Program-made: the position numbers and the translations under genes
Shown here: one piece after another, positions 3,270-51,712 of the stretch
Layout of the letters: every line of letters begins with the position of its first letter
Numbering within the stretch: position 1 is the stretch's first letter
The notes under the pieces: model-generated
Database searches by the model: none
What the model saw: only the letters and a program-made list of their open reading frames with translations
Told to the model about the DNA's origin: nothing
Assembly: GCA_019912885.1 (NCBI GenBank)
Contig: JAIOHV010000203.1
Location: forward strand, 1,885 to 65,884
Reading direction: 5' to 3'
Source of the DNA: a bacterium
GTDB lineage: Bacteria; Lernaellota; Lernaellaia; JACKCT01
DNA: 64,000 nt

Positions 3270-4127
3270 GTGTCCGAAAAAGAAACCAAAACCGAAACCG
3301 AAACCGAAATCCTGCGGATCGCGTCGCGCCTGGCGGTCTGCCTTGTCGAGCCCATTCAACCCGGAAATATCGGCTCGGTCGCGCGCGCGATGAAAAACAT
3401 GGGGATGAGCCGGCTCGTGCTCGTGCGTCCGCCCGACCTGGACGCGCCCGAAGCGCGCATGATGTCCGTCGGCGCCATCGACATTCTGCGGAGCGCCACA
3501 ATCGCCGACACCGTTCGCGAGGCCGTCGCGCCGTTCCAAATTGTCGTCTCCACCACCGCGCGCGTGGGGCAAAAACGCCCGGCCGATTTCACGCCGCGCT
3601 CATTCGCCGCGCACGTCGCGCCGCTTCTTTCCGCCGGCGAGGAGGCCGTCGTCGTGTTTGGCCGCGAGGACAAGGGGCTGACGACGCGGGAGATCGACCT
3701 CGCGCCGCGCATCATCAATATCCCCGCCTCGCCGGAGTATCCGTCGCTCAACATCGCGCAGGCGGTGCTCATCGTCGGCTACGAGGTGTATTGTGCCCTG
3801 GCGGGCGAGGCGGCCGAGCGCGTGCCGGAGCGAAAGCTCGTCGACGCCGATCAGATCGAGCGCCTGTTCGAGCAGGTGCGCCCGCTGCTTTTGGAAATCG
3901 GGTTTCTCGATCCTTCGAATCCGGAGTTCATCCTGAGCGCGCTGCGAAAGATCGCCGGGAGGGCCGGGTTGAACTGGCGCGAGGCGAAGATCCTTCGCGG
4001 CATCTGTTCGGATATGGAATGGTATCTCAACCATGTGGCGGAAAAAGGAGAGCGCGATGGTTCGCGTGAAGTGGACGGGGGCCGCGGGCCTTCAGATCAC
4101 GCACGAAGGCCGGACGTGGCTGATTGA
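3270..4127 (+). CDS. SpoU-family RNA 2-prime-O-methyltransferase (TrmJ/TrmH-like)
   Basis: GTG start. VCLVEPIQPGNIGSVARAMKNMG, VVVFGREDKGL and INIPASPEYPSLNIAQAVLIVGYEV motifs of SPOUT methyltransferases. The N-terminus SEKETKTETETE is encoded by an (AAACCG)4 repeat. Confidence 0.8.
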   Translation: MSEKETKTETETEILRIASRLAVCLVEPIQPGNIGSVARAMKNMGMSRLVLVRPPDLDAPEARMMSVGAIDILRSATIADTVREAVAPFQIVVSTTARVGQKRPADFTPRSFAAHVAPLLSAGEEAVVVFGREDKGLTTREIDLAPRIINIPASPEYPSLNIAQAVLIVGYEVYCALAGEAAERVPERKLVDADQIERLFEQVRPLLLEIGFLDPSNPEFILSALRKIAGRAGLNWREAKILRGICSDMEWYLNHVAEKGERDGSREVDGGRGPSDHARRPDVAD

Positions 4128-4886: not shown

Positions 4887-6305
4887 GTGCCGGGACGGCG
4901 CGGACGATTCGGACTGACGCTTCGCGCGAAGCTGTTGTTCCTGTTGTTCGCGTTATCCGTGCTGCCCGCGGCCGTGACCTGGGTGACCGCGACGCACCTT
5001 ATGAACGAGATGGCCGACGACGTGCTGCACGGCATCGACACGGCCGTGACGCGCGCTGAAAGCGCGCTGGCGCGCGATCCGGCCGACGCGCGCGGAAAGC
5101 AATTCGCGGATCACGTGCAGGCCATCGCGTCGATGCGTCACCGCGAAATGCTCTGGAATATGGCGGCGACGGGCGTCGGCCTGTTGCTGGGCCTCACCAT
5201 TGTGTTGCTGGTTTTGTCGCGCCGGCTAGCGGGCCGTATGAGTGAGCCCATCGAGCGGCTGGCCAAAGCGATGTCGGACATGGACACGGGCGAGCGGATT
5301 TCCGATGCGATCCACCCGATCCCCGACGACACCGATCTGGCGCGGCTCTCGCGGGATTCGGGCGACGAGCTTGGCGATCTTGCCCGGCGCTTCAACACGA
5401 TGGCGACGACGATCGCGCACCTGCGCGGCAATCTCGAGGAGTTCAAGGCGCGGATGGAGCGCGCGTCGCAAGCGCTCGACGAGCCGGACCTGCCGCCGGA
5501 GGATTCCCAGCGGCTCCAGCAACGGCGGCTGGAAGAGGCGGCCGGGAGCCTGGCGCAGCTCGATCGCGACACCGACGAGCTGTTGTCGATGGTTCGCCAC
5601 GAATTGAAAACGCCGCTGACTTCGATCGTCGCAAGCTCCGAGGCCCTGCTTTCGAACCTGCCGTTCAGCCCGGAAAAGCGGACGGGGTTCATCCACATCA
5701 TCCAAGAGGAGGCGCAGCGGCTGACGCGCCTCATCAACGAAGTGCTCGACCCCGCGCGGCCGTCGCCCGCGGCCGTGGGACGCGAGAGGCCCGTCGATCT
5801 GCGGGCCCGGCTGCGTCACGCGGTGCGCGCGGCGGCGCCGATCGCCGAAGCCAAGGGCGTGACGCTCGACATGGAAATCGATGATGACGAACGGTTGGCG
5901 AGCGTTCCGGCCGACGCGGACCGGCTGGCGCAGGCGGTCACAAACCTGCTCGACAACGCCATCCGGTTCACGCCCGCGGGCGGGCGCGTCGTGCTTGGCG
6001 CGGGCGTCAGGAGAGACGGCGACGAGCGGCGCGAAGTGGCGCACGTCTTTGTAAAAGACACCGGGCCGGGCATTCCGCCGGCCATCGAGGATCGTGTCTT
6101 CGAAAAATACGAGACGCTTGACCCGTCCACAAAAGACACCCCCGGCGGCCGCGGGCTCGGCATGGCGATCGCGCGGGAGATCGTCGAGGGACACGGCGGG
6201 CGCATCTGGTTTGCAACGGCGCCCGGCGGGGGTGCCATCTTCCACTTCACGCTGCCGCTGATGGAGCGCCACGCGGCGTCCGGCGGCGCCGCCGTGAATG
6301 TTTGA
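4887..6305 (+). CDS. Sensor histidine kinase (TM, HAMP, HisKA, HATPase_c); orphan, with no adjacent response regulator
   Basis: GTG at 4887, directly after the upstream stop. H-box VRHELKTPLTSI, N-box LLDNAIRFT, G-boxes DTGPGI and GGRGLGMAI. Confidence 0.8.
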   Translation: MPGRRGRFGLTLRAKLLFLLFALSVLPAAVTWVTATHLMNEMADDVLHGIDTAVTRAESALARDPADARGKQFADHVQAIASMRHREMLWNMAATGVGLLLGLTIVLLVLSRRLAGRMSEPIERLAKAMSDMDTGERISDAIHPIPDDTDLARLSRDSGDELGDLARRFNTMATTIAHLRGNLEEFKARMERASQALDEPDLPPEDSQRLQQRRLEEAAGSLAQLDRDTDELLSMVRHELKTPLTSIVASSEALLSNLPFSPEKRTGFIHIIQEEAQRLTRLINEVLDPARPSPAAVGRERPVDLRARLRHAVRAAAPIAEAKGVTLDMEIDDDERLASVPADADRLAQAVTNLLDNAIRFTPAGGRVVLGAGVRRDGDERREVAHVFVKDTGPGIPPAIEDRVFEKYETLDPSTKDTPGGRGLGMAIAREIVEGHGGRIWFATAPGGGAIFHFTLPLMERHAASGGAAVNV

Positions 6306-6355: not shown

Positions 6356-8170
6356 ATGAACATCCTCGGAATCAGCGCGTTCTATCACGATTCGGCGGCG
6401 GCGCTTGTCGTCGACGGCGAGATCGTGGCCGCCGCGCAGGAGGAGCGCTTCACCCGCGTCAAGCACGACGAGGGATGGCCGGAGCACGCCATCGACGCGG
6501 TCCTCGCGCAGGCGGGCATCAAGGCCGGGGATCTCGACCTTGTCGCTTTCTACGACAAGCCGTTCAGGAAATTCGAAAGGCTTTTGAAAAGCTTTCTCAA
6601 CGACGCGCCGCGCGGATATCGGTTATTCCTGCACGCGATGCCGCTTTGGGTTCGCCAGAAACTGCACATCCACGGCATCGCGGAGCGCGAACTCGGGTAC
6701 AAGGGGACGATCGTTTTCCCGGAGCACCACGAATCGCACGCGGCGTCCGCGTTTTATCCGTCACCGTTTGACGAGGCGGCGTTCCTGACGATGGACGCCA
6801 TCGGCGAATGGACGACGACGAGCTTCGGCATCGGCCGCGGCAACGACATCGAGATCCTCGCCCAGATTCGCTTCCCGCACTCGCTGGGCCTTTTGTACTC
6901 CGCCTTCACGGCGTATTGCGGATTTCGCGTCAACTCCGGCGAATACAAGCTGATGGGCCTTGCGCCCTACGGCGAGCCGAAATACGCCGACCGCATCCGC
7001 GACCGTCTCATCGACATCAAGGACGACGGCTCGTTTCGCCTGAACCCGGAGTATTTCACCTACATCGTCGGCACGCGCATGACCGGGAAAAAATTCGACG
7101 CGCTGTTCGACGGGCCGCCGCGAAAGCCCGAGAGCCCGACCGATCCGCGTTACATGGACATCGCCGCGTCCGTCCAGGCGGTGACCGAGGAGGTCGTCTC
7201 CAAGGCCGCGCGGCACGTGCGGCGCGAAACGGGCATGACGCGCCTTTGCATGGCCGGCGGCGTGGCGCTCAACTGCGTCGCGAACGGGAAGCTGCTGCGC
7301 GAAGGGACCTTTGATGCCATCTGGGTGCAACCTGCGTCCGGCGACGCGGGCGGGGCGCTTGGCGCGGCGCTGTGGGCTTGGCACCGATACCACGGCGCGC
7401 CCCGCACGCCGCGCCCCCGGGGCACGCAGGGCGGCTCGTATCTTGGCCCCGCGTACGATGACGACGCCATCGCGGCGTACCTCGACGGCATCGGCGCGCC
7501 TTACCGGCGCCTGTCGCGCGACAAGCTTTTGCGCGAGACGGCCGAGCGCCTGGCGAATGAACAGGTGGTCGGCTGGTTTCAGGGGCGCATGGAGTACGGC
7601 CCGCGCGCGCTCGGGGGGCGGTCGATCCTCGGCGATCCGCGCTCGCCGGCGATGCAGCGCGTCATGAATCTGAAGATCAAGTACCGCGAGTCGTTCCGTC
7701 CCTTTGCGCCCGCGGTCCTGGCCGACCGCGCGGGTCAGTGGTTCGACCTTGCGTGCGAATCGCCCTACATGCTGCTTGTCGCCGATGTGCGCGGCGAGCA
7801 TCGCAAGGCGCTTACCGACGAGGAGAAGAAGCGCACGGGGCTCGATCTTCTCAACACGCCGCGCTCGTCGATTCCCGCCGTGACGCACGTCGATGGCTCC
7901 GCGCGCGTGCAGACGGTCGCCCGTGAGGACAACGAGCTTTTCTACGACCTCATCGCGGCGTTCGCGGACCAGACGGGCGTGCCCGTGCTCGTGAACACCA
8001 GCTTCAACGTGCGCGGCGAGCCGATCGTGGAAAAACCGGAGGACGCCTACCGCTGCTTCATGCGTACCGAGATGGACCTGCTCGTCATGGGCTCGCTGCT
8101 TTTGGAAAAGACCTCCCAGCCGAAGGTCGAGGAAACGCACGACTGGCGGCAGGAATTTCCGCCGGACTGA
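6356..8170 (+). CDS. Carbamoyltransferase, NodU/CmcH family
   Basis: 604 aa. N-terminus MNILGISAFYHDSAAALVVDGEIVAAAQEERFTRVKHD and overall architecture typical of NodU/CmcH O-carbamoyltransferases. Confidence 0.85.
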   Translation: MNILGISAFYHDSAAALVVDGEIVAAAQEERFTRVKHDEGWPEHAIDAVLAQAGIKAGDLDLVAFYDKPFRKFERLLKSFLNDAPRGYRLFLHAMPLWVRQKLHIHGIAERELGYKGTIVFPEHHESHAASAFYPSPFDEAAFLTMDAIGEWTTTSFGIGRGNDIEILAQIRFPHSLGLLYSAFTAYCGFRVNSGEYKLMGLAPYGEPKYADRIRDRLIDIKDDGSFRLNPEYFTYIVGTRMTGKKFDALFDGPPRKPESPTDPRYMDIAASVQAVTEEVVSKAARHVRRETGMTRLCMAGGVALNCVANGKLLREGTFDAIWVQPASGDAGGALGAALWAWHRYHGAPRTPRPRGTQGGSYLGPAYDDDAIAAYLDGIGAPYRRLSRDKLLRETAERLANEQVVGWFQGRMEYGPRALGGRSILGDPRSPAMQRVMNLKIKYRESFRPFAPAVLADRAGQWFDLACESPYMLLVADVRGEHRKALTDEEKKRTGLDLLNTPRSSIPAVTHVDGSARVQTVAREDNELFYDLIAAFADQTGVPVLVNTSFNVRGEPIVEKPEDAYRCFMRTEMDLLVMGSLLLEKTSQPKVEETHDWRQEFPPD

Positions 8171-13238: not shown

Positions 13239-13350
13239 CAGAAAACAGAAAAGAGGAAAGAGAAAAGAGAGTCACGACGTGCGACCTTTCAGGAAAATTT
13301 TCCCGATTGCGATTCATTCCGCATTCCGCATTCCCAATTCCCCATTCATT
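13239..13350. other. Unusually long (170 nt) tolQ-tolR spacer containing a polypurine tract and (CATTCC/GGAATG)-type repeats
   Basis: cagaaaacagaaaagaggaaagagaaaagagag (13239-13271) and gattcattccgcattccgcattcccaattccccattcatt (13311-13350). Confidence 0.6.
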
Positions 13351-14505: not shown

Positions 14506-15768
14506 ATGAATGCAAGGCTCATGCTCGCGTTGTTTTGCACCGCCGCCGTGTTCGCGCTTGTCGTCGGGTTCGCGTGCGTTCCGGGCGACGATGATGACGA
14601 CGACGATGACGACGACGACGATGACGACGACGAACTTCCCACCGAAAGCATCAAGACCATCGAGGCGATCGCCGTCGGCGACGACGCGGGCCGATACAAG
14701 AACGGCCGATGGAGCCCGGACGGCGACGTGCCCGCCGAGGCCCTGCCGCTTTCGACAATCGATTTTCGCGGCCCGGATTTCGGGTTCGCGGCCGGCGTCG
14801 GGCGCATCCTGCAATACGAAGACGGCGAATGGACCGGCGCCGCGGCGCCGATCGAGCCGGACCTCGATGTCCGCCGCATCCTGATCCACCCGGACGGCCG
14901 CGTGTTCGCGTTCGGTAACCGCGGCGTCGATTCCGGCGGCGTGCTGGTCACGCGCGGGCTCGACGGAATCTGGACGCGCGACGACCTGTCGAGTCTGACC
15001 TCCGACGGCGTTTTCATTCGCGACGCGATGCTCTCGGACGAGGGCGTCATCCTGCTCGTCACCGTGAACCTCTCCGCTTACCTGTACATGGCCGGCGGGG
15101 TCGCACCCGCGTCGGTGCAGGTCTATGCGTTCGATCCGACGAATTTCCTCACATACAACGCCATCGGCCGGTTGTTCGACGGGCGCATCCTGCTTGGCGG
15201 CTGGCGCAGCGACGGCATCAACCGCTTCGGATTCGTGATGGTGGAGGACGGGCTGGGCGGCTACATGCCGTTCGAACTCCCCGCGAGCGACTGCCCGGTG
15301 CAGGAAGTGCATCGCTTCGAATCCATCGCGCTCGCCACGTTCATGGTCGGCAAGTGCGTCCGGTCGGTGCTGTACGCATACGAGCAACCGGCGTGGACGG
15401 AGATACCGCTGCCTGGCAGCAAAGGCGCGGATTGGCGCATCAACGACCTCGGCTTCATCTCGCGGCGCGAAGGATTCGCGGTGGGTTATGACGACACGTC
15501 CGACGACCTGCTTACGCTGATTCGCGAGCCGAACGGCTGGGTGCTGATGGAGCCGTACGAGGGTGACACCCCGGGCCGGCGCCTGAATGCCGTCGCCGTC
15601 TGGCCGGCGGGCGCGTCGCTCGACGATGACGACACCGCGGACGACGATTCGCTCGATGACGACACTTCCGATGACGACACGGCCGATGACGATACCGCGG
15701 ATGACGACACCGCGGATGACGACACGCTCGATGATGACACGGGAGACGACGATACGGTGGGTTCGTGA
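14506..15768 (+). CDS. Secreted/lipoprotein hypothetical protein with N-terminal poly-Asp (D16) and C-terminal (DDDTA)n repeats
   Basis: ATG at 14506 after a GGAGAG RBS; signal/lipobox MNARLMLALFCTAAVFALVVGFAC; D-run; C-terminal 15-nt x ~8 repeats encoding DDDTADDDS.... Confidence 0.55.
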   Translation: MNARLMLALFCTAAVFALVVGFACVPGDDDDDDDDDDDDDDDELPTESIKTIEAIAVGDDAGRYKNGRWSPDGDVPAEALPLSTIDFRGPDFGFAAGVGRILQYEDGEWTGAAAPIEPDLDVRRILIHPDGRVFAFGNRGVDSGGVLVTRGLDGIWTRDDLSSLTSDGVFIRDAMLSDEGVILLVTVNLSAYLYMAGGVAPASVQVYAFDPTNFLTYNAIGRLFDGRILLGGWRSDGINRFGFVMVEDGLGGYMPFELPASDCPVQEVHRFESIALATFMVGKCVRSVLYAYEQPAWTEIPLPGSKGADWRINDLGFISRREGFAVGYDDTSDDLLTLIREPNGWVLMEPYEGDTPGRRLNAVAVWPAGASLDDDDTADDDSLDDDTSDDDTADDDTADDDTADDDTLDDDTGDDDTVGS

Positions 15769-17214: not shown

Positions 17215-18132
17215 GTGCGTATCGTGATCGCCATCTTCACGTGGATTTTCACGCGGCCGTCGTGGGAGCGCTCCGAGATCTGGGGCGAGCGGATCGGCCG
17301 GCTTATGTGGCGGGTCGGCATCCGCAAGCGCGTCGTCATGGACAATCTTCACCTGGTATTCGCCTCCGATACGACGCCCGAGGGCCATCGAAAAGACGAC
17401 GCCGAGCTCGCCGCGATCTGCCGCGCGGTGTACGAAAACCTCGGCCGTCTCATCGTGCTCTATTTCCGCACCGACCTCATGGACGCGGCGTTTTTTCGCG
17501 ACCGCTTCGAGGCGGAGGGGATGGAACATCTGCGCGACGGAATCGCCAGGGGGCGCGGCGTTCTCGGCATCGGCATGCACTTTGGCATCCTCGATATCGC
17601 GATGGGCAAGGCCGCGCACGAGCTCGACGCGCCGATTACGCTCGTCGGCAAAAACATCAAGAATCCCGTCGTCAACAACTGGTTTATCGAATCGCGCCGG
17701 CGCATGCGTTTCGATACGGTCGGCCCCAAGGACACACGCCAGGAAATTCTGACGCGGCTTGGCCGCAACGAGCTTGTGACGATGGTGCTCGATCAGAGCA
17801 TGCGCGAGCGCTACGCGATTTACGTCAACGTCATGGGACGCCTGACCGCGACAAACAAGTCCGCCGCCGGGCTTGCGCGCGATTCCGGAGCGACGGTCGT
17901 TCCGGGCTGGGCGTATCGCGTCGGCCCCGCGCGCTACCGCCTGGTCGCCCAGCCGCCCATCCCGTACATCACGCATGACGACCCCGACGAGGAGCGGCGG
18001 CTCAACACGCAGGCGTACGTCGAACGCCTGGACGCGGCGATCCTCGAGAATCCGGAGCACTGGTTCTGGCTGCACCGAAGGTGGAAGCGGGTAAAGGAGA
18101 TCGAGGATCGAAAATCGAAGATTGAAGATTGA
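17215..18132 (+). CDS. Lipid A biosynthesis acyltransferase, LpxL/HtrB (lauroyl/myristoyl) family
   Basis: GTG start; 305 aa; matches the general LpxL-family layout (N-terminal anchor, ~300 aa). The extreme C-terminus KEIEDRKSKIED is encoded by a heptamer repeat element. Confidence 0.65.
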   Translation: MRIVIAIFTWIFTRPSWERSEIWGERIGRLMWRVGIRKRVVMDNLHLVFASDTTPEGHRKDDAELAAICRAVYENLGRLIVLYFRTDLMDAAFFRDRFEAEGMEHLRDGIARGRGVLGIGMHFGILDIAMGKAAHELDAPITLVGKNIKNPVVNNWFIESRRRMRFDTVGPKDTRQEILTRLGRNELVTMVLDQSMRERYAIYVNVMGRLTATNKSAAGLARDSGATVVPGWAYRVGPARYRLVAQPPIPYITHDDPDEERRLNTQAYVERLDAAILENPEHWFWLHRRWKRVKEIEDRKSKIED

Positions 18133-18176
18133 ACGGAACGCGAGCGTGAATTCTTCAATCCTCGATCTTCAATCTA
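18097..18176. repeat. GAGGATY-heptamer palindromic (REP-like) element, copy A, between the convergent acyltransferase and lptG
   Basis: gagatcgaggatcgaaaatcgaagattgaagattgaa / loop / ttcttcaatcctcgatcttcaatcta; the arms are reverse complements; it overlaps the stop of the acyltransferase. Confidence 0.7.
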
Positions 18177-18185
18177 CAATATTGC

Positions 18186-39883: not shown

Positions 39884-41538
39884 TCGAAACGGTCGTCGTC
39901 CTCGCGGGGATCGCGCGACTTGATCCGGTATTGCCGCTCCAGGTGCGGCAGCAGATCGTTCACGATCATTCTACGAAATTCGCCCGGAAATTCCGACGCC
40001 GTGGGATCGAAAAAGAACGAATAACCCTCGCGGCCGGCCGGTGATGCGTCGCCGGAAACGAGCACCATGACGACCTGCTGCGCGTATCCGCGCGCGGCGA
40101 GCGCGCCCTGCGCCTCGACGAGCTGGTCCATGTCGTTTGGCGTTTTGCCGCGATCGAGGAAAACAAGAAGCAGCGGATACGTCTTCCAGCGGCTGCGTTC
40201 GTCGTAGTAACCCGCGGGCAGGAAAACGCCATACTCGACGACGACATCTTCGCCGAACGTCGAGGCGGCAAACGCCCTCGTCTGATAATACGGGCGCGAG
40301 TCCTTGGGGTCGTCGCCGAACAGTCCGTTCGCGACGCGCGAGGAGGCAAACGACAGCACGTGATTGTAGCGCGCGACGCGCACGGCCTCGCTGCCGGTGT
40401 GCTTTTGCTCGATGTCATCCGGCGCCGCCTCGGATTCGAACAAAAGCGACGCGTGCTTGGACGCAAACCAGATCGGCTCGGTAGGCGAAGGGAAGCCGCC
40501 GATGAAGCCGTCGTAAAGCCCGGCCTCGAACCGCAGGCAATAGGCCGGGTCCGGTTCGTCGACCGTCAGATAATGCGCATTGATCGCCGAGGCGAGCGAC
40601 GCGGCGTGCGTCGCGAACGGCCAGTAATCGTCCGTAGCGGCGTCCGCGTAGAGCCCGCCGCGATAGCGCGAGGTGGCGTCGATCTCGCCGCTGCGCGCGC
40701 GCGCCGCGGGGCTGCGGGCAAACCAGTTCGCCACGTTGGGGGTATAGGAATAGGCGCCGTCGCCTTCGCCCGCGTCGCCGGTGCCCGCGACGCCGTCCGG
40801 GCCGAGGTCGTCAAACGCCTCGCCCGCGTCGTGCACGCCGTTGCCGTTGCCGTCGGTGAACGCTTCGCGCATCGGGCAGAAGATCGGCTCGCCCGGATCG
40901 CGGCGGCTGTTGCCGTTGACGTCGACGGCGAGAAGGAAATCGACCAGGAACTCGTCGTCCTCGCCCTCGAAAAACGTCGTCAGCGGCACGGAGCCGTCGG
41001 GCGAATCGGGCGTCGGAACGCCGGTGACGATTTGCTGCGTTCCGCCGGTGACGCCCGGCGGGTAAAACGCGCTCGCGGGATTGAAATAGCAGGGGTTGCC
41101 GAGCGCGATGAAAATGTCGCGAAGGAAGGCGAAGTATTCCACGCGCGAGGGCAGGTCGTCCCAGTCATCTGGCGCGTCGAGCCGGGCCTTGATCGACCCG
41201 AGCAGCAATTCGAGATCAACCGGCCCGCCGAGCGACGCGGCGGTGGCGAACAGCTCCGGGTTGTCGAGCGCGATATCCATCGCGCCAAGGCCGCCAAGGC
41301 CGATGCCGAGCGCCATGTGCCACGGACCCTTGTAGTCCTCGTCGATGATCTCGTTCGGGCACGGCGGCTCGTAAACGCCTTCATACGACGCGTCCTGCGT
41401 GCAGGCGAACGCAAAAAGTCCGACCGCGACAATCGCCGTCAATGCATGAAAAAATTTGGGCAAAGTTGATCCCCGGGCAAGTGGGCGCGACAGTGTATGC
41501 GCGGGCGATGGGAGGGTCAACGAAGGCGCCCCGGACAA
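39880..41538 (-). CDS. Lipoprotein, putative esterase (alpha/beta-hydrolase-like) with thrombospondin-type-3-like Ca-binding Asp repeats
   Basis: Lipobox LFAFAC; DVNGNSRRDPGE and DGNGNGVHDAGE repeats; C-terminal esterase-like region. Confidence 0.45.
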   Translation of the reverse strand: MSGAPSLTLPSPAHTLSRPLARGSTLPKFFHALTAIVAVGLFAFACTQDASYEGVYEPPCPNEIIDEDYKGPWHMALGIGLGGLGAMDIALDNPELFATAASLGGPVDLELLLGSIKARLDAPDDWDDLPSRVEYFAFLRDIFIALGNPCYFNPASAFYPPGVTGGTQQIVTGVPTPDSPDGSVPLTTFFEGEDDEFLVDFLLAVDVNGNSRRDPGEPIFCPMREAFTDGNGNGVHDAGEAFDDLGPDGVAGTGDAGEGDGAYSYTPNVANWFARSPAARARSGEIDATSRYRGGLYADAATDDYWPFATHAASLASAINAHYLTVDEPDPAYCLRFEAGLYDGFIGGFPSPTEPIWFASKHASLLFESEAAPDDIEQKHTGSEAVRVARYNHVLSFASSRVANGLFGDDPKDSRPYYQTRAFAASTFGEDVVVEYGVFLPAGYYDERSRWKTYPLLLVFLDRGKTPNDMDQLVEAQGALAARGYAQQVVMVLVSGDASPAGREGYSFFFDPTASEFPGEFRRMIVNDLLPHLERQYRIKSRDPREDDDRFE

Positions 41539-41599
41539 GGGCGTGGGCGATGGCGGCGTTTGCGCCGTGCGGCGCGCGCTCCTATCATCACCACTTCAA

Positions 41600-43687
41600 A
41601 TGCGCAGACGTTTTCTTGTCCCCTTCGCGATCTTGCTGTTTACGGCCGGCGTGTTTCTCGCGGCGGCCGGCGCATCCGCGGTGTACACGATCGTCGAACA
41701 CGATTACCTCGGGCGCGAGTTGCCGAATGTCGCGCGCGGTGTCGTGCGCGCGCGGCTTTCCGCCTTTGTGATGCGCGGGATTCTCGCCGGGATCGCGATC
41801 GTCGCGTTCATGTCGATCGCGCGGCGCATCGCGAAGGATACCGTCCGGCGGCGCCGCGCCTTCGCCGCCTTTCCGTTCGCGCTGTCGTTTGTGCTCGCGG
41901 GCGTCGTGTTCGCGGTGACTCTCGTGATGCGCCACAACCTCGCCGGGCCACTGGCCTCGGAGCTGTCCGCGTTTGTCGTGCTTTCGCGCGTCATCCTGCC
42001 GATGCTGCTCGACCCGGTGACGCTGCCGCCGATGATCGTCGCCGCGGGGGCGCTCGTGGCGGCGACCGCGGCCTTCGCGCTTGCGACGCTGCTTGTCGCC
42101 TTGCCGATCGGGAGCCGGCTTGCCGGAAAGATTTCGAAATTCCGCAGGCGGAAGGAGATCCTTCGCTTCGCTCAGGATGACAAAGCGGCACGGGATGACA
42201 AAGCGGTGCGGGATGACAAAGCGGTGCGGGATGACAAAGCGGTACGGGATGACAAAGCGGTGCGGGATGACAACGCGGTACGGGATGACAAAGCGGTACG
42301 GGATGACCGTCGAAAGAAACGCCCATCGCGGGCGCCGTTCGCGCTTTTGATCGCGGGTGCGATTCTCGTCGGTGGCGCGATCCTGGCTTACGGCGCGGCG
42401 CGGCCCGTGACGCCCAACGACGGCGCGCCGGACATCATCCTTATCAGCATCGACACGCTGCGCCGCGATCACATGAGCCTGTACGGATACAAGCGCGAGA
42501 CGACGCCGAACCTCGATCGCCTGGCGCGCGATTCCGTGGTGGTGGACGAGCACATTTCGCACGCGCCCTGGACGCTTCCCGCGCACATGAGCATGTTCAC
42601 GGGCCTGCTCCCGTTCGAGCATGGCGTCGTTTCGATCGACCGGTCGCTCGACCCGAAAACGCCGGTGCTTGCCGAATCGCTGAAGGAGCGCGGATACGCG
42701 ACGGCCGCGTTCGCGACGAACTACCTGCTCAGCCCGCGCTACGGCTACGGATCGGGATTCGATTTCTACGTGCTGCGCGCGGACTTTCCCGCCGAGGACG
42801 CGGTGGATCGCGCCATCGAGTGGCTTGCGGCGACGCCGACGCCGGCGTTCGTCTTTCTGCATCTCTACGACACGCATTACCCCTACGCGCCGCGCGAGGG
42901 CTATCGCGGGCGCTTCGGCAGCAAGGGCGACGGCCTGGACGCGATCATGTCCGAGCCGTTTTTCACCTTCGCCAGGCAAGCGCGCGATTTTTCTCGCGGA
43001 GACGAGCGCAAGGTGCGCGCGCGCTACGACGAAGAAATCCTGGACGTTGACGATCACGTCGGGCGTCTTTTCTCGAAGATGAAGGGGTGGGGGCGATACA
43101 AAAACGCCTGGATCATCGTGACCTCCGACCACGGCGAGGAATTCAACGACCACGGCATGTGGGGGCATTCGATTTCGCTCTACGAGGAAATGGTGCGCGT
43201 GCCGCTGATCGTGAAGCCGCCCGAGGGCGGGTGCGCGGGCATCGTGATGACCGGCGCGCAGATCGCCCAGCGCGCCATTTACGACATCGTGCGCGCGGCG
43301 TCGTTCCTACCGCTCGGTGCACATCCGGATGTGCGCTGCGATACGGGCGCGCCGCGCATTCTGACGCAGTTCGCCGAGGAAAACGTGCTCGCGGAAAGCG
43401 AGGTCTTCGGCCCTCATCGATTCGGAGTACGCACGACGACAAAGAAACTCGTGGAGCCGATCGTATTTGATCTCGACGACTTCCGCGTGGAGCGCGGCCA
43501 CGAACTTTTCGATCTTAATCGCGATCCGAAGGAAAAGACGAACGTGTACGAACCGGGCGCGGCGCCCGCGCTCTCAGCGATCATCGACAAGGCCAATCAG
43601 GCGCTGAAAACGCGCACCGAAACCGGCGAGCGCGATCTATCGCCCGAGGAGCTGGAGCGACTGCGTTCGTTGGGGTATTTGCAATAG
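41600..43687 (+). CDS. Membrane-anchored sulfatase-like hydrolase/transferase (alkaline-phosphatase superfamily) with an in-frame DDKAVR x7 repeat linker
   Basis: N-terminal multi-TM domain; ILISIDTLRRDHMSLYGY and SHAPWTLPAHMSMFTG active-site region; IIVTSDHGEEFNDHGMWGH. Confidence 0.65.
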   Translation: MRRRFLVPFAILLFTAGVFLAAAGASAVYTIVEHDYLGRELPNVARGVVRARLSAFVMRGILAGIAIVAFMSIARRIAKDTVRRRRAFAAFPFALSFVLAGVVFAVTLVMRHNLAGPLASELSAFVVLSRVILPMLLDPVTLPPMIVAAGALVAATAAFALATLLVALPIGSRLAGKISKFRRRKEILRFAQDDKAARDDKAVRDDKAVRDDKAVRDDKAVRDDNAVRDDKAVRDDRRKKRPSRAPFALLIAGAILVGGAILAYGAARPVTPNDGAPDIILISIDTLRRDHMSLYGYKRETTPNLDRLARDSVVVDEHISHAPWTLPAHMSMFTGLLPFEHGVVSIDRSLDPKTPVLAESLKERGYATAAFATNYLLSPRYGYGSGFDFYVLRADFPAEDAVDRAIEWLAATPTPAFVFLHLYDTHYPYAPREGYRGRFGSKGDGLDAIMSEPFFTFARQARDFSRGDERKVRARYDEEILDVDDHVGRLFSKMKGWGRYKNAWIIVTSDHGEEFNDHGMWGHSISLYEEMVRVPLIVKPPEGGCAGIVMTGAQIAQRAIYDIVRAASFLPLGAHPDVRCDTGAPRILTQFAEENVLAESEVFGPHRFGVRTTTKKLVEPIVFDLDDFRVERGHELFDLNRDPKEKTNVYEPGAAPALSAIIDKANQALKTRTETGERDLSPEELERLRSLGYLQ
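42176..42310 (+). repeat. 18-bp tandem repeat x ~7.5 (GATGACAAAGCGGTRCGG) inside the sulfatase-like CDS; VNTR-like
   Basis: Near-perfect copies with G/A and C/T wobble at two positions; encodes (DDKAVR)n. Confidence 0.9.
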
Positions 43688-43752
43688 TGAGGAAAGAGAA
43701 AAGAGGAAAGAGGAAAGAGGAAAGAGGAAAGAGGAAGCAGGAAATAGGAAAG
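43688..43752. repeat. (GAGGAAA)n polypurine heptamer microsatellite between convergent genes
   Basis: gaggaaagagaaaagaggaaagaggaaagaggaaagaggaaagaggaagcaggaaataggaaag, directly after the sulfatase stop. Confidence 0.9.
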
Positions 43753-43778
43753 AACTACGGACCCCGCTTCCAGCCTCC

Positions 43779-45541: not shown

Positions 45542-45573
45542 GGCTCCGCCGAAAACGCGGGGCCTTTTTGTTT
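45542..45573 (+). terminator. Rho-independent terminator after the dksA-like gene
   Basis: ggctccgcc-gaaaa-cgcggggcc (G-U wobble) followed by TTTTTGTTT. Confidence 0.65.
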
Positions 45574-45753
45574 GGAGGATTGAGGATCGAGGATCGAGGA
45601 TTGAGTGTCCTCCAATCGCGTTCGAGTGCGTCGCCATCCGGTTCCGGCGGCAGACTTACCCGGCTTCCACTCGCGGTTCGCGACTTGCGGTTTGCTGAAC
45701 GTGAAGCGGCTTTGCGATTCCACTCGATCCTCAATCCTCAATCCTCTATCCTC
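45574..45753. mobile_element. MITE-like element (~180 bp) with ~33-bp imperfect terminal inverted repeats made of GAGGATY heptamers (copy B)
   Basis: ggaggattgaggatcgaggatcgaggattgagtg (45574-45607) versus cactcgatcctcaatcctcaatcctctatcctc (45721-45753); 113-nt unique core. Confidence 0.55.
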
Positions 45754-45756
45754 GCC

Positions 45757-46554
45757 TCAGATCAAATCCGCGAAGTCTCTGGAAAATCGGTGGAAAAACA
45801 CCCAGCCGATGATCGCGACCAACAAGGAGAGCGCGGAGAAGTAACTGAAGCCGTAGAGGTCCGGCACGACGTCGCCAAGCAACGCGGCCCGATAGAGGTT
45901 GACGAGCCACGTCAGGGGATTGAGATAGAAAAACGCCTTGATCGACTCCGGAACGAGCACGACCGGGAAAATGATCGGCGTGCCGAAAAACCAGAGCGTG
46001 AGGATCGCGGCGGTCAGCTCGCGGGCGTCCTTGTAGAACACCGTCACGGCGCTGACGATCATCGCGATGCCGAGGGTGAAAAGAAGCTGAAGCGGCCAGA
46101 TCGCGAACAAAAGCCCGAACATGACGATGGAAGGCGACTGACCGAGCGCGGCCAGGATGACGATAAAAACGATGAGCGCGACGATCTCGTGAAGGAACGC
46201 CCCCAGAACGCAACGCAGGGGCAGCATGATCTTCGGGAAGTTGACCTGTTTCACGAAATCCTTGTTTTCCATGATGACCATGGACGATCGCTGCACGGCG
46301 TCGGACAGGCCGATCCACGGCAGCATGCCGGCGAAAAGGAAGATGCCGTAGTTTTTCGGTCCGGCGTTGCCGCCGACGTTGACGTCGAGGATGTAGCCGA
46401 ACACGAGCACATAAAGCAGGATGAGCAGAAGCGGATTGATGACCGACCAGAAAAGGCCAAGGAAACTGGCGCCGTAGCGGTTGCGCAGATCCGCCCGCAC
46501 GAAACCCCAGAGGAGGTACTTCTGCCGGTAGAGCGATCGAAATTGTTCGAGCAA
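45757..46554 (-). CDS. ABC-2 type exporter permease (Wzm/KpsM-like, polysaccharide or teichoic-type export); no cognate ATPase adjacent
   Basis: 6 TM; ABC2_membrane signature; the position downstream where an ATPase would sit is occupied by the MITE-like element. Confidence 0.8.
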   Translation of the reverse strand: MLEQFRSLYRQKYLLWGFVRADLRNRYGASFLGLFWSVINPLLLILLYVLVFGYILDVNVGGNAGPKNYGIFLFAGMLPWIGLSDAVQRSSMVIMENKDFVKQVNFPKIMLPLRCVLGAFLHEIVALIVFIVILAALGQSPSIVMFGLLFAIWPLQLLFTLGIAMIVSAVTVFYKDARELTAAILTLWFFGTPIIFPVVLVPESIKAFFYLNPLTWLVNLYRAALLGDVVPDLYGFSYFSALSLLVAIIGWVFFHRFSRDFADLI

Positions 46555-46685
46555 ACGGCCGTCCTCGCCACGCGGGCCGCGAATGAGAGGCCCACCGTGC
46601 GTCTTGTTTACCCGAATCCGCCGCGCGCGCGAAGAGGCCGCGCGACGATCGGGCGATTTGACGTCGTTAATCGAAAGACGCGGCG

Positions 46686-48380
46686 GTGGGACGAGCTTTG
46701 AATCGGCGCCGGCCCCGGCTCGACGACGCGATCGCCGTTGCCGTCATCACCGCCGTCATGCTCGCCGCGAAAATCGCCGCCGGGCGATTTGCCGCCGTGC
46801 CGCTCGACGACTCCTGGAACTTCGTTCTTCCGCTGAAGCACTTTCTCGAAAGCGGCGTCCCCCGATTTGATTCGTTCAACTCCGCGGCGGCCGTTTTGCA
46901 TTTAGCCGCCGCGTGGCCACTCGCGAAGCTGTTTGGCGCATCGTTCCCGCTGACGGCCGCGTTAAACTTCCTGATCACCGCCGCGGCCGTTTACGCGGTC
47001 TATCTTCTTGCGCGCGTCGCGGGGGGGACCGCGCGGTTCGCGGCGATTGTCGCGCTTTGCGCCTTCGCCGCGCCGCCGGTTTTCGTCGTTGCGTTCACTT
47101 TCCAGAGCGATCCCGTATTTCTTCTCGTGGAGACGCTCGCGCTCGCGGCATTCGTCGATTACGCGCGAAGGCGGCGAACGGCGTCGCTCGCGGCGGCGTC
47201 GGTTTTCGCGGCGCTTTCGATCTGGGCGAAGATCCACGGGCTTTTTCTCGCGCCGGCGTTTATCGCCGTGCTCCTTGCCGTTGCCCAACTGCGAAAACGC
47301 ACACCGGCGTGGGCGTTCGCCGCGCTCGCCGCGCCGACGCTTGCGTCTTACGTCGCCTTTCGTCTGGCGAAGCCGTTTGTTCACCCGATCTCGACAACGC
47401 TCGACCAGAAGTCGGCCGAATTCGCTGAACGCCTGTTTTCGCCGTCCGTCTGGCTTGCGGACGGACCCTGGCGCGCCATTGTCGCAATCGCGTCGGCCGC
47501 GTTCTATTTCCTTCCTGCGATCGTCGCGATCCGGCGCGCGCGCGAGGAAGCGGCGGGAAAACGCGCGGCGCCCGCGCTCGTCGTCGCATCGCTCGCCGGC
47601 GCCGTGTTGGGGGGGATCATCGCGATCGTCCGCGCGCGAGGCGGATCCTGGGCGCTTGCGCCGAGCATGTTGACCAAGGCGCCGACGCTCGCGCCGATGT
47701 CGGCGTGGGGTTGGGTGTACGCGGGTGTTGCCGCGGGCGCGCCGATGCTTTTGTATTGGCTGTTAAAGACGCGTTCCGACGCTCCCGCCGCCGCACTTCC
47801 CGATGGCGGGAGGGGCGAGGGCCTTCGCATCGATCCGCTTGTCGCGATCGCGCTGATAGTGATTCTGTCCCAGGTTGCCCTCATGGTACCGATACGCTGG
47901 TTCATGGATCGCTATTTCATTGTGCTCGTTCCGCCGATGGCGCTTGGGGCCGTCGCCGCCGCCCGCGATCGGCGGATCGCGCTTGCTTTCGCGATCCCGA
48001 TTCTGCTCCTGATCCTGGCGCTGGATGTCGTGCGCGTCCGGCAGTATCGCGACGGCGCCGAATTGCGCTGGGCGATGGCCGACGCGATCGCGAAATCCGG
48101 CGTGCCGGTCGAGAACATCGACGGCGGGTACGAGTGGTTCGGGTGGCACAACTTCGAGGCCTGCGAAGCGCGCGGGCGGCGCGGGACACGCGCGCCGGGT
48201 GCATCGGCCTGGGTGGCGGAACTTTGCCCGGACCTCGCGCCGAATCACCACGTCACCTTTGAGCCGCCGCCCACCGGATGTGATATCATCGAGACGCGCT
48301 CCTATGGTGCGGGGCCGCTTCTCGGCGAGCGTCCGGCGTTTGCCTATCGTTGCGCGCCGCGGGAAACGAACGCCGGCTGA
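46686..48380 (+). CDS. GT-C fold membrane glycosyltransferase (ArnT/PMT-like)
   Basis: 564 aa, ~12 TM; acidic first periplasmic loop PLDDSWNFVLPLKHF; architecture matches ArnT/PMT_2 family enzymes. Confidence 0.5.
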   Translation: MGRALNRRRPRLDDAIAVAVITAVMLAAKIAAGRFAAVPLDDSWNFVLPLKHFLESGVPRFDSFNSAAAVLHLAAAWPLAKLFGASFPLTAALNFLITAAAVYAVYLLARVAGGTARFAAIVALCAFAAPPVFVVAFTFQSDPVFLLVETLALAAFVDYARRRRTASLAAASVFAALSIWAKIHGLFLAPAFIAVLLAVAQLRKRTPAWAFAALAAPTLASYVAFRLAKPFVHPISTTLDQKSAEFAERLFSPSVWLADGPWRAIVAIASAAFYFLPAIVAIRRAREEAAGKRAAPALVVASLAGAVLGGIIAIVRARGGSWALAPSMLTKAPTLAPMSAWGWVYAGVAAGAPMLLYWLLKTRSDAPAAALPDGGRGEGLRIDPLVAIALIVILSQVALMVPIRWFMDRYFIVLVPPMALGAVAAARDRRIALAFAIPILLLILALDVVRVRQYRDGAELRWAMADAIAKSGVPVENIDGGYEWFGWHNFEACEARGRRGTRAPGASAWVAELCPDLAPNHHVTFEPPPTGCDIIETRSYGAGPLLGERPAFAYRCAPRETNAG

Positions 48381-50564: not shown

Positions 50565-50597
50565 GAGAGGATCGAGGATCGAGGATCGAGGATCGAA
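50565..50597. repeat. GAGGATC x4 heptamer tandem repeat (copy C of the GAGGATY family) immediately after the fusA stop
   Basis: gagaggatcgaggatcgaggatcgaggatcgaa. Confidence 0.85.
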
Positions 50598-50676: not shown

Positions 50677-50704
50677 CCGCCCGAGTTTGACCGGGCGGTT
50701 TTCT
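50677..50704. terminator. Bidirectional rho-independent terminator between fusA and ilvE
   Basis: ccgcccg-agtttga-ccgggcgg followed by TTTTCT; A-rich upstream. Confidence 0.7.
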
Positions 50705-50753
50705 CGTCATTGGTTTTCGGGCACGGGCGCGGGCGCGGTCACCGACGCTTCGC

Positions 50754-50780
50754 GATTCCATTCCGCACTCCGCATTCATT
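50754..50780. repeat. CATTCCGCAYTCCGCATTC motif (second copy; see 13311-13350)
   Basis: gattccattccgcactccgcattcatt abutting the ilvE stop. Confidence 0.7.
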
Positions 50781-51712
50781 CAGACAAACGTATGCCAGCC
50801 GTGCGTGTCGTCGATCTCGGCGCGGACGTATTGCAGATAGCGCTCCTGCACCTTCGCGGTGATTGGCCCGCGCCGTCCATCGCCGATCGGAATCTTGTCG
50901 ACGGAGACCACCGGCGTCACCTCGGCGGCCGTGCCGGTAAAGAAGATCTCGTCGGCGAGATAGAGCATTTCGCGCGGGATCTGCGCTTCAACGACCTCGT
51001 AACCGATTTCGCGCAAGATCGTCATGGCGCAGTCGCGCGTGATGCCGGGCAAAATCCCCGAGGCCAGGGACGGCGTGAAGGCCTTGCCGTTTCGAATCAG
51101 GAAGACGTTTTCGCCCGAGCCTTCGCTGACGATGCCGTCGGTGCCAAGCGCGATCCCCTCGGAAAAGCCGTAGAGGGAGGCTTCCATCTTGATGAGCTGG
51201 CCGCTGGCGTAGTTGGCGCCGCATTTCGCCGCGGCGGGCAGGGTGTTCGGGGCCACGCGGTTCCAACTGCTGACCATCACGTTCACGCCTTTTTCGAGCG
51301 CGTCCGCGCCGAGGTACGCGCCCCATTCCCACGCGCAGATGAAGGCCTCGACGCTGTTGGTCAGGGCGTTGACGCCGAACGTGCCGGTCCCGCGAAAGAC
51401 GATCGGCCGGATGTAACAGGCGGGAAATCCGTTCGCCCGCACGGTGTCGAGAATCGCGCGCCGAAACTCGTCTTGCGAAAATGGAATCGCCATGCGGTAG
51501 AGTTTCGCGGAGTCGAAAAGGCGCCGCACGTGTTCATCGAGCCGAAACACCGACGGCCCTTTCGAGGTGCCGTAGCAGCGGATCCCCTCAAAGACGCTTG
51601 AGCCGTAGTGCAGGGCGTGCGTCATCACGTGAACGGTCGCGTCTTTCCAGGCGATGATTTCGCCGTTTTTCCACACCTTGGTGTTGCCCGATATGTCCTG
51701 GAACGCGGTCAT
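50780..51712 (-). CDS. ilvE: Branched-chain-amino-acid aminotransferase
   Basis: GGGGAGA RBS, MTAFQDISGNTKVWKNGEII; fold-type IV PLP motifs (EGIRCY, TGTAAEVTPV). Confidence 0.85.
   Translation of the reverse strand: MTAFQDISGNTKVWKNGEIIAWKDATVHVMTHALHYGSSVFEGIRCYGTSKGPSVFRLDEHVRRLFDSAKLYRMAIPFSQDEFRRAILDTVRANGFPACYIRPIVFRGTGTFGVNALTNSVEAFICAWEWGAYLGADALEKGVNVMVSSWNRVAPNTLPAAAKCGANYASGQLIKMEASLYGFSEGIALGTDGIVSEGSGENVFLIRNGKAFTPSLASGILPGITRDCAMTILREIGYEVVEAQIPREMLYLADEIFFTGTAAEVTPVVSVDKIPIGDGRRGPITAKVQERYLQYVRAEIDDTHGWHTFV

Follow-up and report, generated by a model that had tools for sequence, protein, structure and literature searches.

A hairpin element with a tandem tail in a membrane protein gene

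We analyzed a stretch of 64,000 nucleotides (nt) of bacterial DNA (contig JAIOHV010000203.1 of assembly GCA_019912885.1, positions 1,885 to 65,884; lineage Lernaellota), hereafter the window, in which the gene for a membrane protein with an extracytoplasmic sulfatase-fold domain contains a tandem array of 18-nt units encoding the peptide DDKAVR (Table 1). The array does not stand alone: its first GGATGAC is also the 3' end (7 nt) of a hairpin element 24 nt in length, and hairpin and array together make up a 150-nt in-frame segment that is absent from the homologous genes. The same hairpin is found in the genomes of diverse bacteria and in phages, in some cases with tandem tails at the same end. 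We consider it probable that a selfish hairpin, similar in shape to repetitive extragenic palindromes (REP), inserted in frame in a permissive loop of the protein, and that its 3' arm was then expanded by slippage.

Tandem Repeats Finder (TRF) detects the array with a period of 18, 7.4 copies, 93% matches, and a score of 231, the highest of the 73 arrays in the window. When one mismatch is allowed, the unit GGATGACAAAGCGGTRCG has seven matches, all in the array and none elsewhere in the 64 kb, compared with a chance expectation of 0.14; none of 100 shuffled sequences yielded seven. The near-identical head-to-tail units are thus beyond chance and constitute an in-frame coding tandem repeat. The array is in frame with the plus-strand open reading frame (ORF) 41456-43687, and its translation reads DDKAAR, DDKAVR four times, DDNAVR, DDKAVR, and then DD. 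A preliminary description of the window had reported an in-frame, sevenfold 18-bp repeat of near-identical, recently expanded units. The repeat itself is borne out by TRF, the shuffles, and the frame of the ORF, the near identity of the units fits recent expansion by slippage, and the orthologs lack the repeat. The same description considered the differences between the units to be synonymous or conservative, which is only partly correct. The GCA, GTG, and GTA variants are as described, with GTG/GTA synonymous and GTx to GCA in unit 1 replacing V with A, but unit 6 carries a change that was not listed, AAA to AAC, which replaces K with N and is not conservative. All eight GGATGAC copies are identical, and all four variable sites fall within the 11-nt spacer, although the difference between motif and spacer (0 variants in 56 bases and about 5 in 77 bases, respectively) is not significant.

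The ORF predicted mechanically begins at TTG 41456 (743 aa), whereas ATG 41600 (MRRRF...) agrees with the starts of the orthologs. Among 5.8 billion proteins, the best homologs are 41-51% identical and about 645 aa long, some of them from metagenome-assembled genomes labeled 'Deltaproteobacteria bacterium'; with 51% as the best protein identity, the databases contain no close relative of the source genome. The homologs align over the full length, including the hydrophobic N-terminal part. The ortholog alignment proposed in the preliminary description was run, and both with 12 and with 30 homologs the columns of the repeat are filled by the window protein alone (the repeat is absent from the 11 closest and from all 29 other homologs, which are at most 51% identical). 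The transmembrane (TM) helices TM4 and TM5 and the catalytic residues around the insertion are conserved across the homologs, and all invariant catalytic residues are retained. The TM4-TM5 loop comprises 76 residues in the window protein, 26 when ILRFAQ-(DDKAVR)x7-DD is left out, and about 20-25 in the homologs. On the evidence of these alignments, the 150-nt segment is an insertion specific to the source lineage. An element inside an ORF, in frame, that leaves the ORF intact and is lacking in the orthologs is also what characterizes insertions of Rickettsia palindromic elements (RPE; see below).

Table 1. Coordinates of the hairpin, its tail, and the surrounding gene in the window
Feature	Position	Strand	Description and evidence
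Membrane protein gene	41600..43687	+	695 aa; 5 TM helices and extracytoplasmic sulfatase-fold (alkaline-phosphatase superfamily) domain, predicted; ORF, ortholog alignment, PF00884, AlphaFold2
TM4 (predicted)	42029..42106	+	Last helix before repeat loop; ~aa 192-217 of the 743-aa ORF; hydropathy maximum 2.33; AlphaFold2 helix residues 144-167/169-210
In-frame insertion	42158..42307	+	Hairpin and tandem tail, 150 nt; encodes ILRFAQ-(DDKAVR)x7-DD
Hairpin element	42158..42181	-	Single copy, 24 nt; exact 24-mer match; nhmmer against family profile, E=1.4e-11
Tandem array	42175..42307	+	7 units x 18 nt (GGATGAC+AAAGCGGTRCG) and terminal GGATGAC
TM5 (predicted)	42335..42397	+	Between repeat loop and catalytic domain; ~aa 294-314; preceded by RRKKRPSR; hydropathy maximum 2.30; AlphaFold2 helix 245-266, predicted local distance difference test (pLDDT) >80
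Sulfatase-fold catalytic domain	42428..43228	+	PF00884, E=7.5e-39, aa 325-591
W-T-L-P-A-H motif	42569..42586	+	Thr opposite the formylglycine Cys of sulfatases and phosphonate monoester hydrolases (PMH); His opposite their Arg

Structure and distribution of the hairpin family

On the plus strand, the insertion begins with the hairpin sequence ATCCTTCGCTTCGCTCAGGATGAC. Read on the minus strand, GTCATCCTGAGCGAAGCGAAGGAT, the 5-bp stem of the hairpin, ATCCT/AGGAT, encloses the apex GAGCGAAGCGA, within which lies the GCGAAGC mini-hairpin; the consensus of the element is T-GTC-ATYYY-GAGCGAAGCGA-RRRAT-CT. Covariation was assessed in 61 further independent copies that lie outside the selection imposed by the search pattern. 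The five positions beside the GAGCGAAGCGA apex form Watson-Crick pairs in 69-84% of these copies, with T-A, C-G, and G-C as the pair types, and the next two flanking positions are conserved yet unpaired (C·C and T·T; 15% paired). Judging from these pairing frequencies, the stem is real and kept by compensatory changes, and it is flanked by conserved single-stranded GTC and CT. The GCGAAGC sequence is known as an 'extraordinarily stable' DNA mini-hairpin (PMC13037366). The minus-strand apex matches it exactly, and the bases flanking the apex could form tandem G·A pairs, although the published motif is a structural heptamer and not a genomic repeat family.

An exact scan of a one-genome-per-species collection with the pattern ATCCYTCGCTTCGCTCRGGATGAC identified at least 120 genome loci in more than ten bacterial phyla. 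The hosts among the listed matches include Acidobacteriota, Chloroflexota, Gemmatimonadota, Nitrospirota (Nitrospirales), Myxococcales, and Bacteroidota, with the isolate Mucilaginibacter sp. SG564 among the latter; Bacillota (including Lachnospiraceae), Verrucomicrobiota, Planctomycetota, Omnitrophica, and Patescibacteria; and Alpha-, Beta-, and Gammaproteobacteria and Bdellovibrionales. The hairpin 24-mer is also present, without mismatches, in 32 viral contigs, and exact copies are thus known from more than 150 loci. One of these (L150) is a phage contig encoding the large terminase subunit, portal, and prohead protease and carries three copies on the same strand (4048-4071, 5447-5470, and 7586-7609), all in intergenic gaps and two of the three with GGATGAC tails. 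Residence in phages could help account for the spread of the hairpin across phyla. Many loci carry an inverted doublet, GTCATCCTGAGCGAAGCGAAGGATCTG…CAGATCCTTCGCTTCGCTCAGGATGAC, whereas the window copy is a lone singlet and the only hairpin copy in the 64 kb. A pair of nhmmer matches at 3926-3998 is marginal, reads as ordinary coding sequence, and was not counted.

Rfam contains no family for the locus (at E values up to 1) or for nine full palindromic loci, with only spurious microRNA-type hairpin matches, and full-text literature searches with sequence strings of the element returned no relevant paper. The element is apparently uncatalogued, and may have been described earlier under another name. 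The sequence test was prompted by the translations ILRFAQDD and VILSEAKDL, which we take to be frequent in spurious ORFs.

Tandem tails occur at one end of the hairpin

The tails were surveyed with TRF in the 120 loci and the window; duplicates were then removed and an independent viral set was added, giving 158 copies. In the TRF survey, an array with a period of 12-40 abuts the GGATGAC end of 14 of the 131 hairpin matches and the other end of none (0/131), compared with 1.6% of random positions. In the larger set, 21 of the 158 copies (13%) have another exact GGATGAC no more than 45 nt downstream, compared with 0.24% expected by chance, and none has one upstream; with one mismatch allowed over the same distance, the counts are 33 downstream (21%) and 4 upstream. 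Successive GGATGAC copies are mostly spaced by 17-22 nt. The tail unit comprises part of the hairpin's 3' arm, from CTTCGCTCAGGATGACA down to GGATGACA, together with 7-12 nt of neighboring sequence.

Tails of different lengths are found: three loci are in a two-copy state (L031, L077, and L097), three are expanded to 4-5 GGATGAC copies each (L012, L067, and L095), and the window array, with eight, is the longest tail in the survey. Among the other clear tails, which usually lie between genes, periods of 17, 19, 20, or 22 nt predominate; in some, such as L115 with 24 nt, the period is divisible by three. The spacers are near-identical in most tails. The preliminary description overlooked that the repeat originates as the tail at the 3' end of a hairpin element found in many genomes.

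We also considered a model in which the spacer of the window array is a target-site duplication. The upstream flank was compared by eye in the window, L012, and L095 only, and on this limited basis the model was rejected: AGGCGGAAGGAG in the window flank shares no more than 8 of 12 positions with AAGCGGTACGGG, and nothing similar to the spacer is present in L012 or L095.

Hairpin copies inside other genes

The open stretches around most hairpin matches are short; the shorter of the two sides has a median length of 27 codons. A few matches, however, lie within genes. The UvrA protein encoded in L119 (2-2833, minus strand) has a 66-residue in-frame insertion that includes CHPERSEGS, the translation of the hairpin in another reading frame. 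This protein aligns with a solved UvrA (9gxk) up to residue 562 and again from residue 629, and the reference has 6 residues between the two aligned parts (between 597 and 604). The insertion possibly also contains a second, inverted remnant of the hairpin (…PTSLRS…). In L046, a PdxK/ThiD-like kinase is broken by …GILRFAQDDR…. A weaker candidate is L049, in which the hairpin peptide VIPSEARDL lies in a 436-aa open stretch with Pfam matches below the threshold only. The same element is thus found in frame in unrelated genes, UvrA and the PdxK/ThiD-like kinase, in the manner of RPE.

Membrane topology of the host protein

The hydropathy profile of the window protein contains four N-terminal TM segments, a loop, a strong fifth TM segment, and then the catalytic domain, and the AlphaFold2 model based on 30 sequences (pLDDT 87; predicted template modeling score 0.84) has the same helices. 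The sole long low-confidence stretch of the model, residues 204-239, lies within and just past the repeat and is directly followed by the TM5 helix. The TM region has no Pfam match above the cut-off. Because the TM4-TM5 loop that contains the repeat is K/R-rich on both sides (KISKFRRRKE… and …RRKKRPSR), and the TM2-TM3 loop (RRIAKDTVRRRR) likewise, the positive-inside rule places the repeat in the cytoplasm. Together with the modeled helices, this predicts a cytoplasmic repeat and a catalytic domain on the outside of the membrane. The preliminary description located the repeat between the multi-TM domain and the catalytic domain, but it lies between TM4 and TM5. On the predicted topology, TM5 stands between the two, so that the repeat neither tethers the catalytic domain nor determines how far it extends.

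Origin of the array

If the array arose as we propose, the short selfish hairpin would have entered the gene in frame at the cytoplasmic TM4-TM5 loop, after which its 3' arm (…GGATGAC), along with about 11 nt of adjacent sequence, would have been duplicated to yield direct repeats. Replication slippage would then have expanded these repeats to seven units, a process that the very stable hairpin may promote through stalling or through a misaligned nascent strand. The 18-nt period without an in-frame stop would keep the ORF intact throughout, and the outcome would be a charged, low-confidence loop extension of 50 residues. Most likely, this extension is neutral or merely tolerated. The units differ in three ways, one of them synonymous and two of them replacements, and there is no sign of selection on the peptide.

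Several observations weigh against this account. With a single hairpin copy in the 64 kb, there is no visible proliferation of the element in the source genome. Nearest-neighbor DNA folding does not single out the hairpin (z = -0.7 and -1.5), and it yields no significant stability for either the hairpin or the array. The energy model used includes neither sheared G·A pairs nor the mini-hairpin. The case for hairpin stability draws on the published GCGAAGC data (PMC13037366) and on covariation. The scans of genomes and metagenomes identified no sister genome that lacks the insertion or has a different copy number; hence, the order of events and their recency are what we infer. The two-unit repeat pattern has no exact match in public genome contigs or metagenome contigs, and the 28-nt flank upstream of the repeat has none in public metagenome contigs. 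The array ends with an additional GGATGAC, so that the first duplication needed either a pre-existing second copy of the 3' arm or 7-nt microhomology, which generic slippage leaves unexplained. Finally, in four tails (L019, L035, L115, and L152), the spacers have diverged but (GCT)CAGGATGAC is kept, and diverged spacers next to a kept GGATGAC motif hint at something beyond neutral slippage.

The last two observations leave room for an alternative, namely, that a process specific to the element makes or keeps the tail, the units being putative iteron-like binding sites for an enzyme that moves or processes the hairpin. Each unit would then carry a protein-recognized flank, GGATGACA (TGTCATCC on the other strand), and the 17-22-nt spacing would correspond to about two helical turns. 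The strictly one-ended occurrence of exact tails, their narrow spacing, the conservation of the GTC and CT flanks without pairing, and the confinement of the variable sites of the window array to the spacer are all compatible with such a process. Nevertheless, we consider it unlikely. No associated protein was found, and the one gene identified between two hairpin copies, in L058, encodes an ordinary histidine kinase; the near-identical spacers of most tails are those expected from simple recent duplication; and the comparison of motif with spacer is biased by the way the tails were collected and, in the window, lacks significance. A transposase was initially considered for the gene between the two L058 hairpins and was rejected, because the gene encodes this kinase; it is followed by a gene for a LuxR-type response regulator.

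The preliminary description viewed the array as the classic architecture of contingency loci with a variable number of tandem repeats (VNTR), with copy number tuning the length of the linker. In an adaptive locus of this kind, slippage would make the number of units differ from cell to cell, and the enzyme would be tuned through the length of its loop or linker. Such a role would draw on the near identity of the slippage-prone units and on the setting of the gene, which encodes an envelope-facing enzyme and adjoins the envelope-sugar gene wecB, yet it appears improbable. Gain or loss of 18-nt units leaves the frame unchanged; the segment is predicted to lie not at the surface but in a K/R-rich cytoplasmic loop of low pLDDT, with TM5 ahead of the catalytic domain, so that copy number would leave the catalytic reach unaffected; and the differences between the units (GTG/GTA, V to A, and K to N) carry no signal of selection on the peptide. 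Moreover, like arrays beside the same hairpin occur in intergenic DNA of unrelated genomes, and an array of this kind can therefore exist without a function at the protein level. In place of a tunable periplasmic linker or a phase-variable enzyme, the results point to a selfish insertion that the cytoplasmic loop tolerates.

Distortion of the copy number, or of the whole array, by the assembly is highly improbable: the 133-nt array is close to short-read length, and the window looks metagenome-derived, is GC-rich (63.6%), and has no close relative in public data, but the order of the distinct unit variants is definite and the 150-nt insertion preserves the frame exactly, unlike an artifact of collapse or expansion, and like tails are present in many independent assemblies, including long-read-style contigs.

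Four further resemblances, considered as leads, were rejected: a hammerhead core (there is no CUGANGA), sponge repeats of the CsrB/RsmZ type with CAGGAUG (the window units have GGGAUG instead and are part of a coding sequence), type III antitoxin repeats (the unit sizes and the context are wrong), and CRISPR (there are no spacers).

Comparison with known repeat systems

REP and REPIN are repetitive extragenic palindromes that are mobilized by RAYT transposases (PMC3116915, PMC3337134). The hairpin family resembles them in its size (about 25-30 nt), its conserved stem and unpaired flanks, the compensatory changes in the stem (in the 61 copies), its mostly intergenic location, and the presence of several copies per genome. 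REP families, however, are lineage-specific, whereas more than ten phyla, and phages, share the identical hairpin 24-mer. The one-sided tandem tails and the occasional sites within genes are further differences. Family members occur singly or, at many loci, as inverted doublets with a short spacer, and the window copy is a singlet that lacks a partner.

The closest documented analog is RPE, selfish palindromes that insert into genes for proteins without shifting the frame (for a review, see PMC10969869). In both cases, a palindrome is in frame at tolerated sites of unrelated housekeeping genes, to which it adds a peptide, and leaves the ORF unbroken. The likeness is one of form: RPE are about 100-150 bp long and confined to Rickettsia, whereas the element described here is only 24 nt long and most of the inserted length in the window is the slippage tail.

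With contingency loci and in-frame coding VNTRs, the array shares the head-to-tail, near-identical units within an ORF that are a substrate for slippage. It differs in that the 18-nt unit, in frame and inside the ORF, switches neither the frame nor promoter spacing, and in that the repeat is located in a predicted cytoplasmic loop instead of an exposed segment. It does not qualify as a classical contingency locus.

That a loop contains a coding repeat in frame is in itself ordinary; of interest is an identical hairpin that occurs across phyla, seeds one-sided tails, and colonizes coding sequence. Tentatively, and with low confidence, we raise a broader possibility, that the hairpin marks an undescribed small DNA element mobile across phyla, or that a widespread enzyme active on single-stranded DNA has the hairpin as its substrate. 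This activity would leave one-sided 'stutter' arrays of the 3' arm at 17-22 nt, and the element would be able to colonize coding sequence in frame; the window array would then be the largest known footprint of the activity and not a generic VNTR. If undescribed, the hairpin would give rise to spurious ORFs and odd peptide inserts when metagenomes are annotated, and it would be a natural system for hairpin-driven tandem duplication and a marker of an unknown mobilizing activity.

The catalytic domain

The preliminary description referred to the protein as a sulfatase-like enzyme, which is right for the fold but doubtful for the chemistry. The nearest solved proteins by both sequence and fold (phmmer and Foldseek) are PMH and S1 sulfatases (E ~1e-20), yet the formylglycine motif C/S-x-P-x-R of S1 sulfatases is not present and T-L-P-A-H stands in its place. 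In the phmmer alignment, T-L-P-A-H pairs with C-G-S-S-R of 4upl (W-T-L-P-A-H compared with I-C-G-S-S-R). The columns of W324, T325, and P327 are invariant across the 30 homologs, and His occupies the Arg position in at least 90% of the sequences. Members of the alkaline-phosphatase superfamily that catalyze phosphoryl transfer, such as NPP, LtaS, and EptA, use Thr at the nucleophile position. The alignment, combined with what is known of the superfamily, suggests that Thr may be the nucleophile here as well.

Many members of this subfamily are annotated as 'arylsulfatase A-like enzyme', and they have the conserved five-TM N-terminal region in common. Given the replacement of Cys by Thr, the subfamily as a whole is unlikely to be a formylglycine sulfatase; from its sequence features, it is likely to be a membrane-bound phosphoryl-transfer or other non-sulfatase enzyme with an unassigned substrate. 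The predicted architecture combines an N-terminal anchor of five TM helices with a PF00884 domain outside the cytoplasm and a Thr as the predicted nucleophile, as in the membrane-anchored alkaline-phosphatase-superfamily transferases LtaS, EptA/MCR, and OpgB. The catalytic domain itself differs from that of LtaS, EptA, and OpgB in being closer to PMH and S1 sulfatases, with MCR-2 detected only at E=1.3e-4.

Other repeats and neighboring genes

Three other arrays in the window have periods that are multiples of three, at 15624-15756, 14586-14633, and 36859-36972 (15 nt x7.8, 15 nt x3.2, and 18/33 nt, respectively), and the DDKAVR array is therefore not the sole repeat of this kind there. Their units are rich in GAC and GAT and probably encode acidic low-complexity stretches of other proteins.

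The genes around the membrane protein gene are chromosomal (wecB, clpB, and fusA). Four long flanking ORFs have no Pfam match at E <=1e-5: 39880-41538 on the minus strand and 45568-46701, 46686-48380, and 50687-51601 on the plus strand. Of these, the 552-aa ORF divergent from the sulfatase-like gene has a signal-anchor-like N-terminus.

A second class of repeats in the window consists of intergenic tandem arrays of purine-rich heptamers, for example, (GAGGAAA)x9.3 and (GAGGATC)x4.3. They are located at 43689-43753; 50567-50596; 45575-45605 with 45723-45753; 18098-18133 with ~18150-18180; and 13240-13270 with 13315-13347. Two of these arrays start 2-3 nt past the stop codons of the sulfatase-like gene and of the gene for elongation factor G, and several form inverted pairs 30-115 nt apart, such that long stems are possible.

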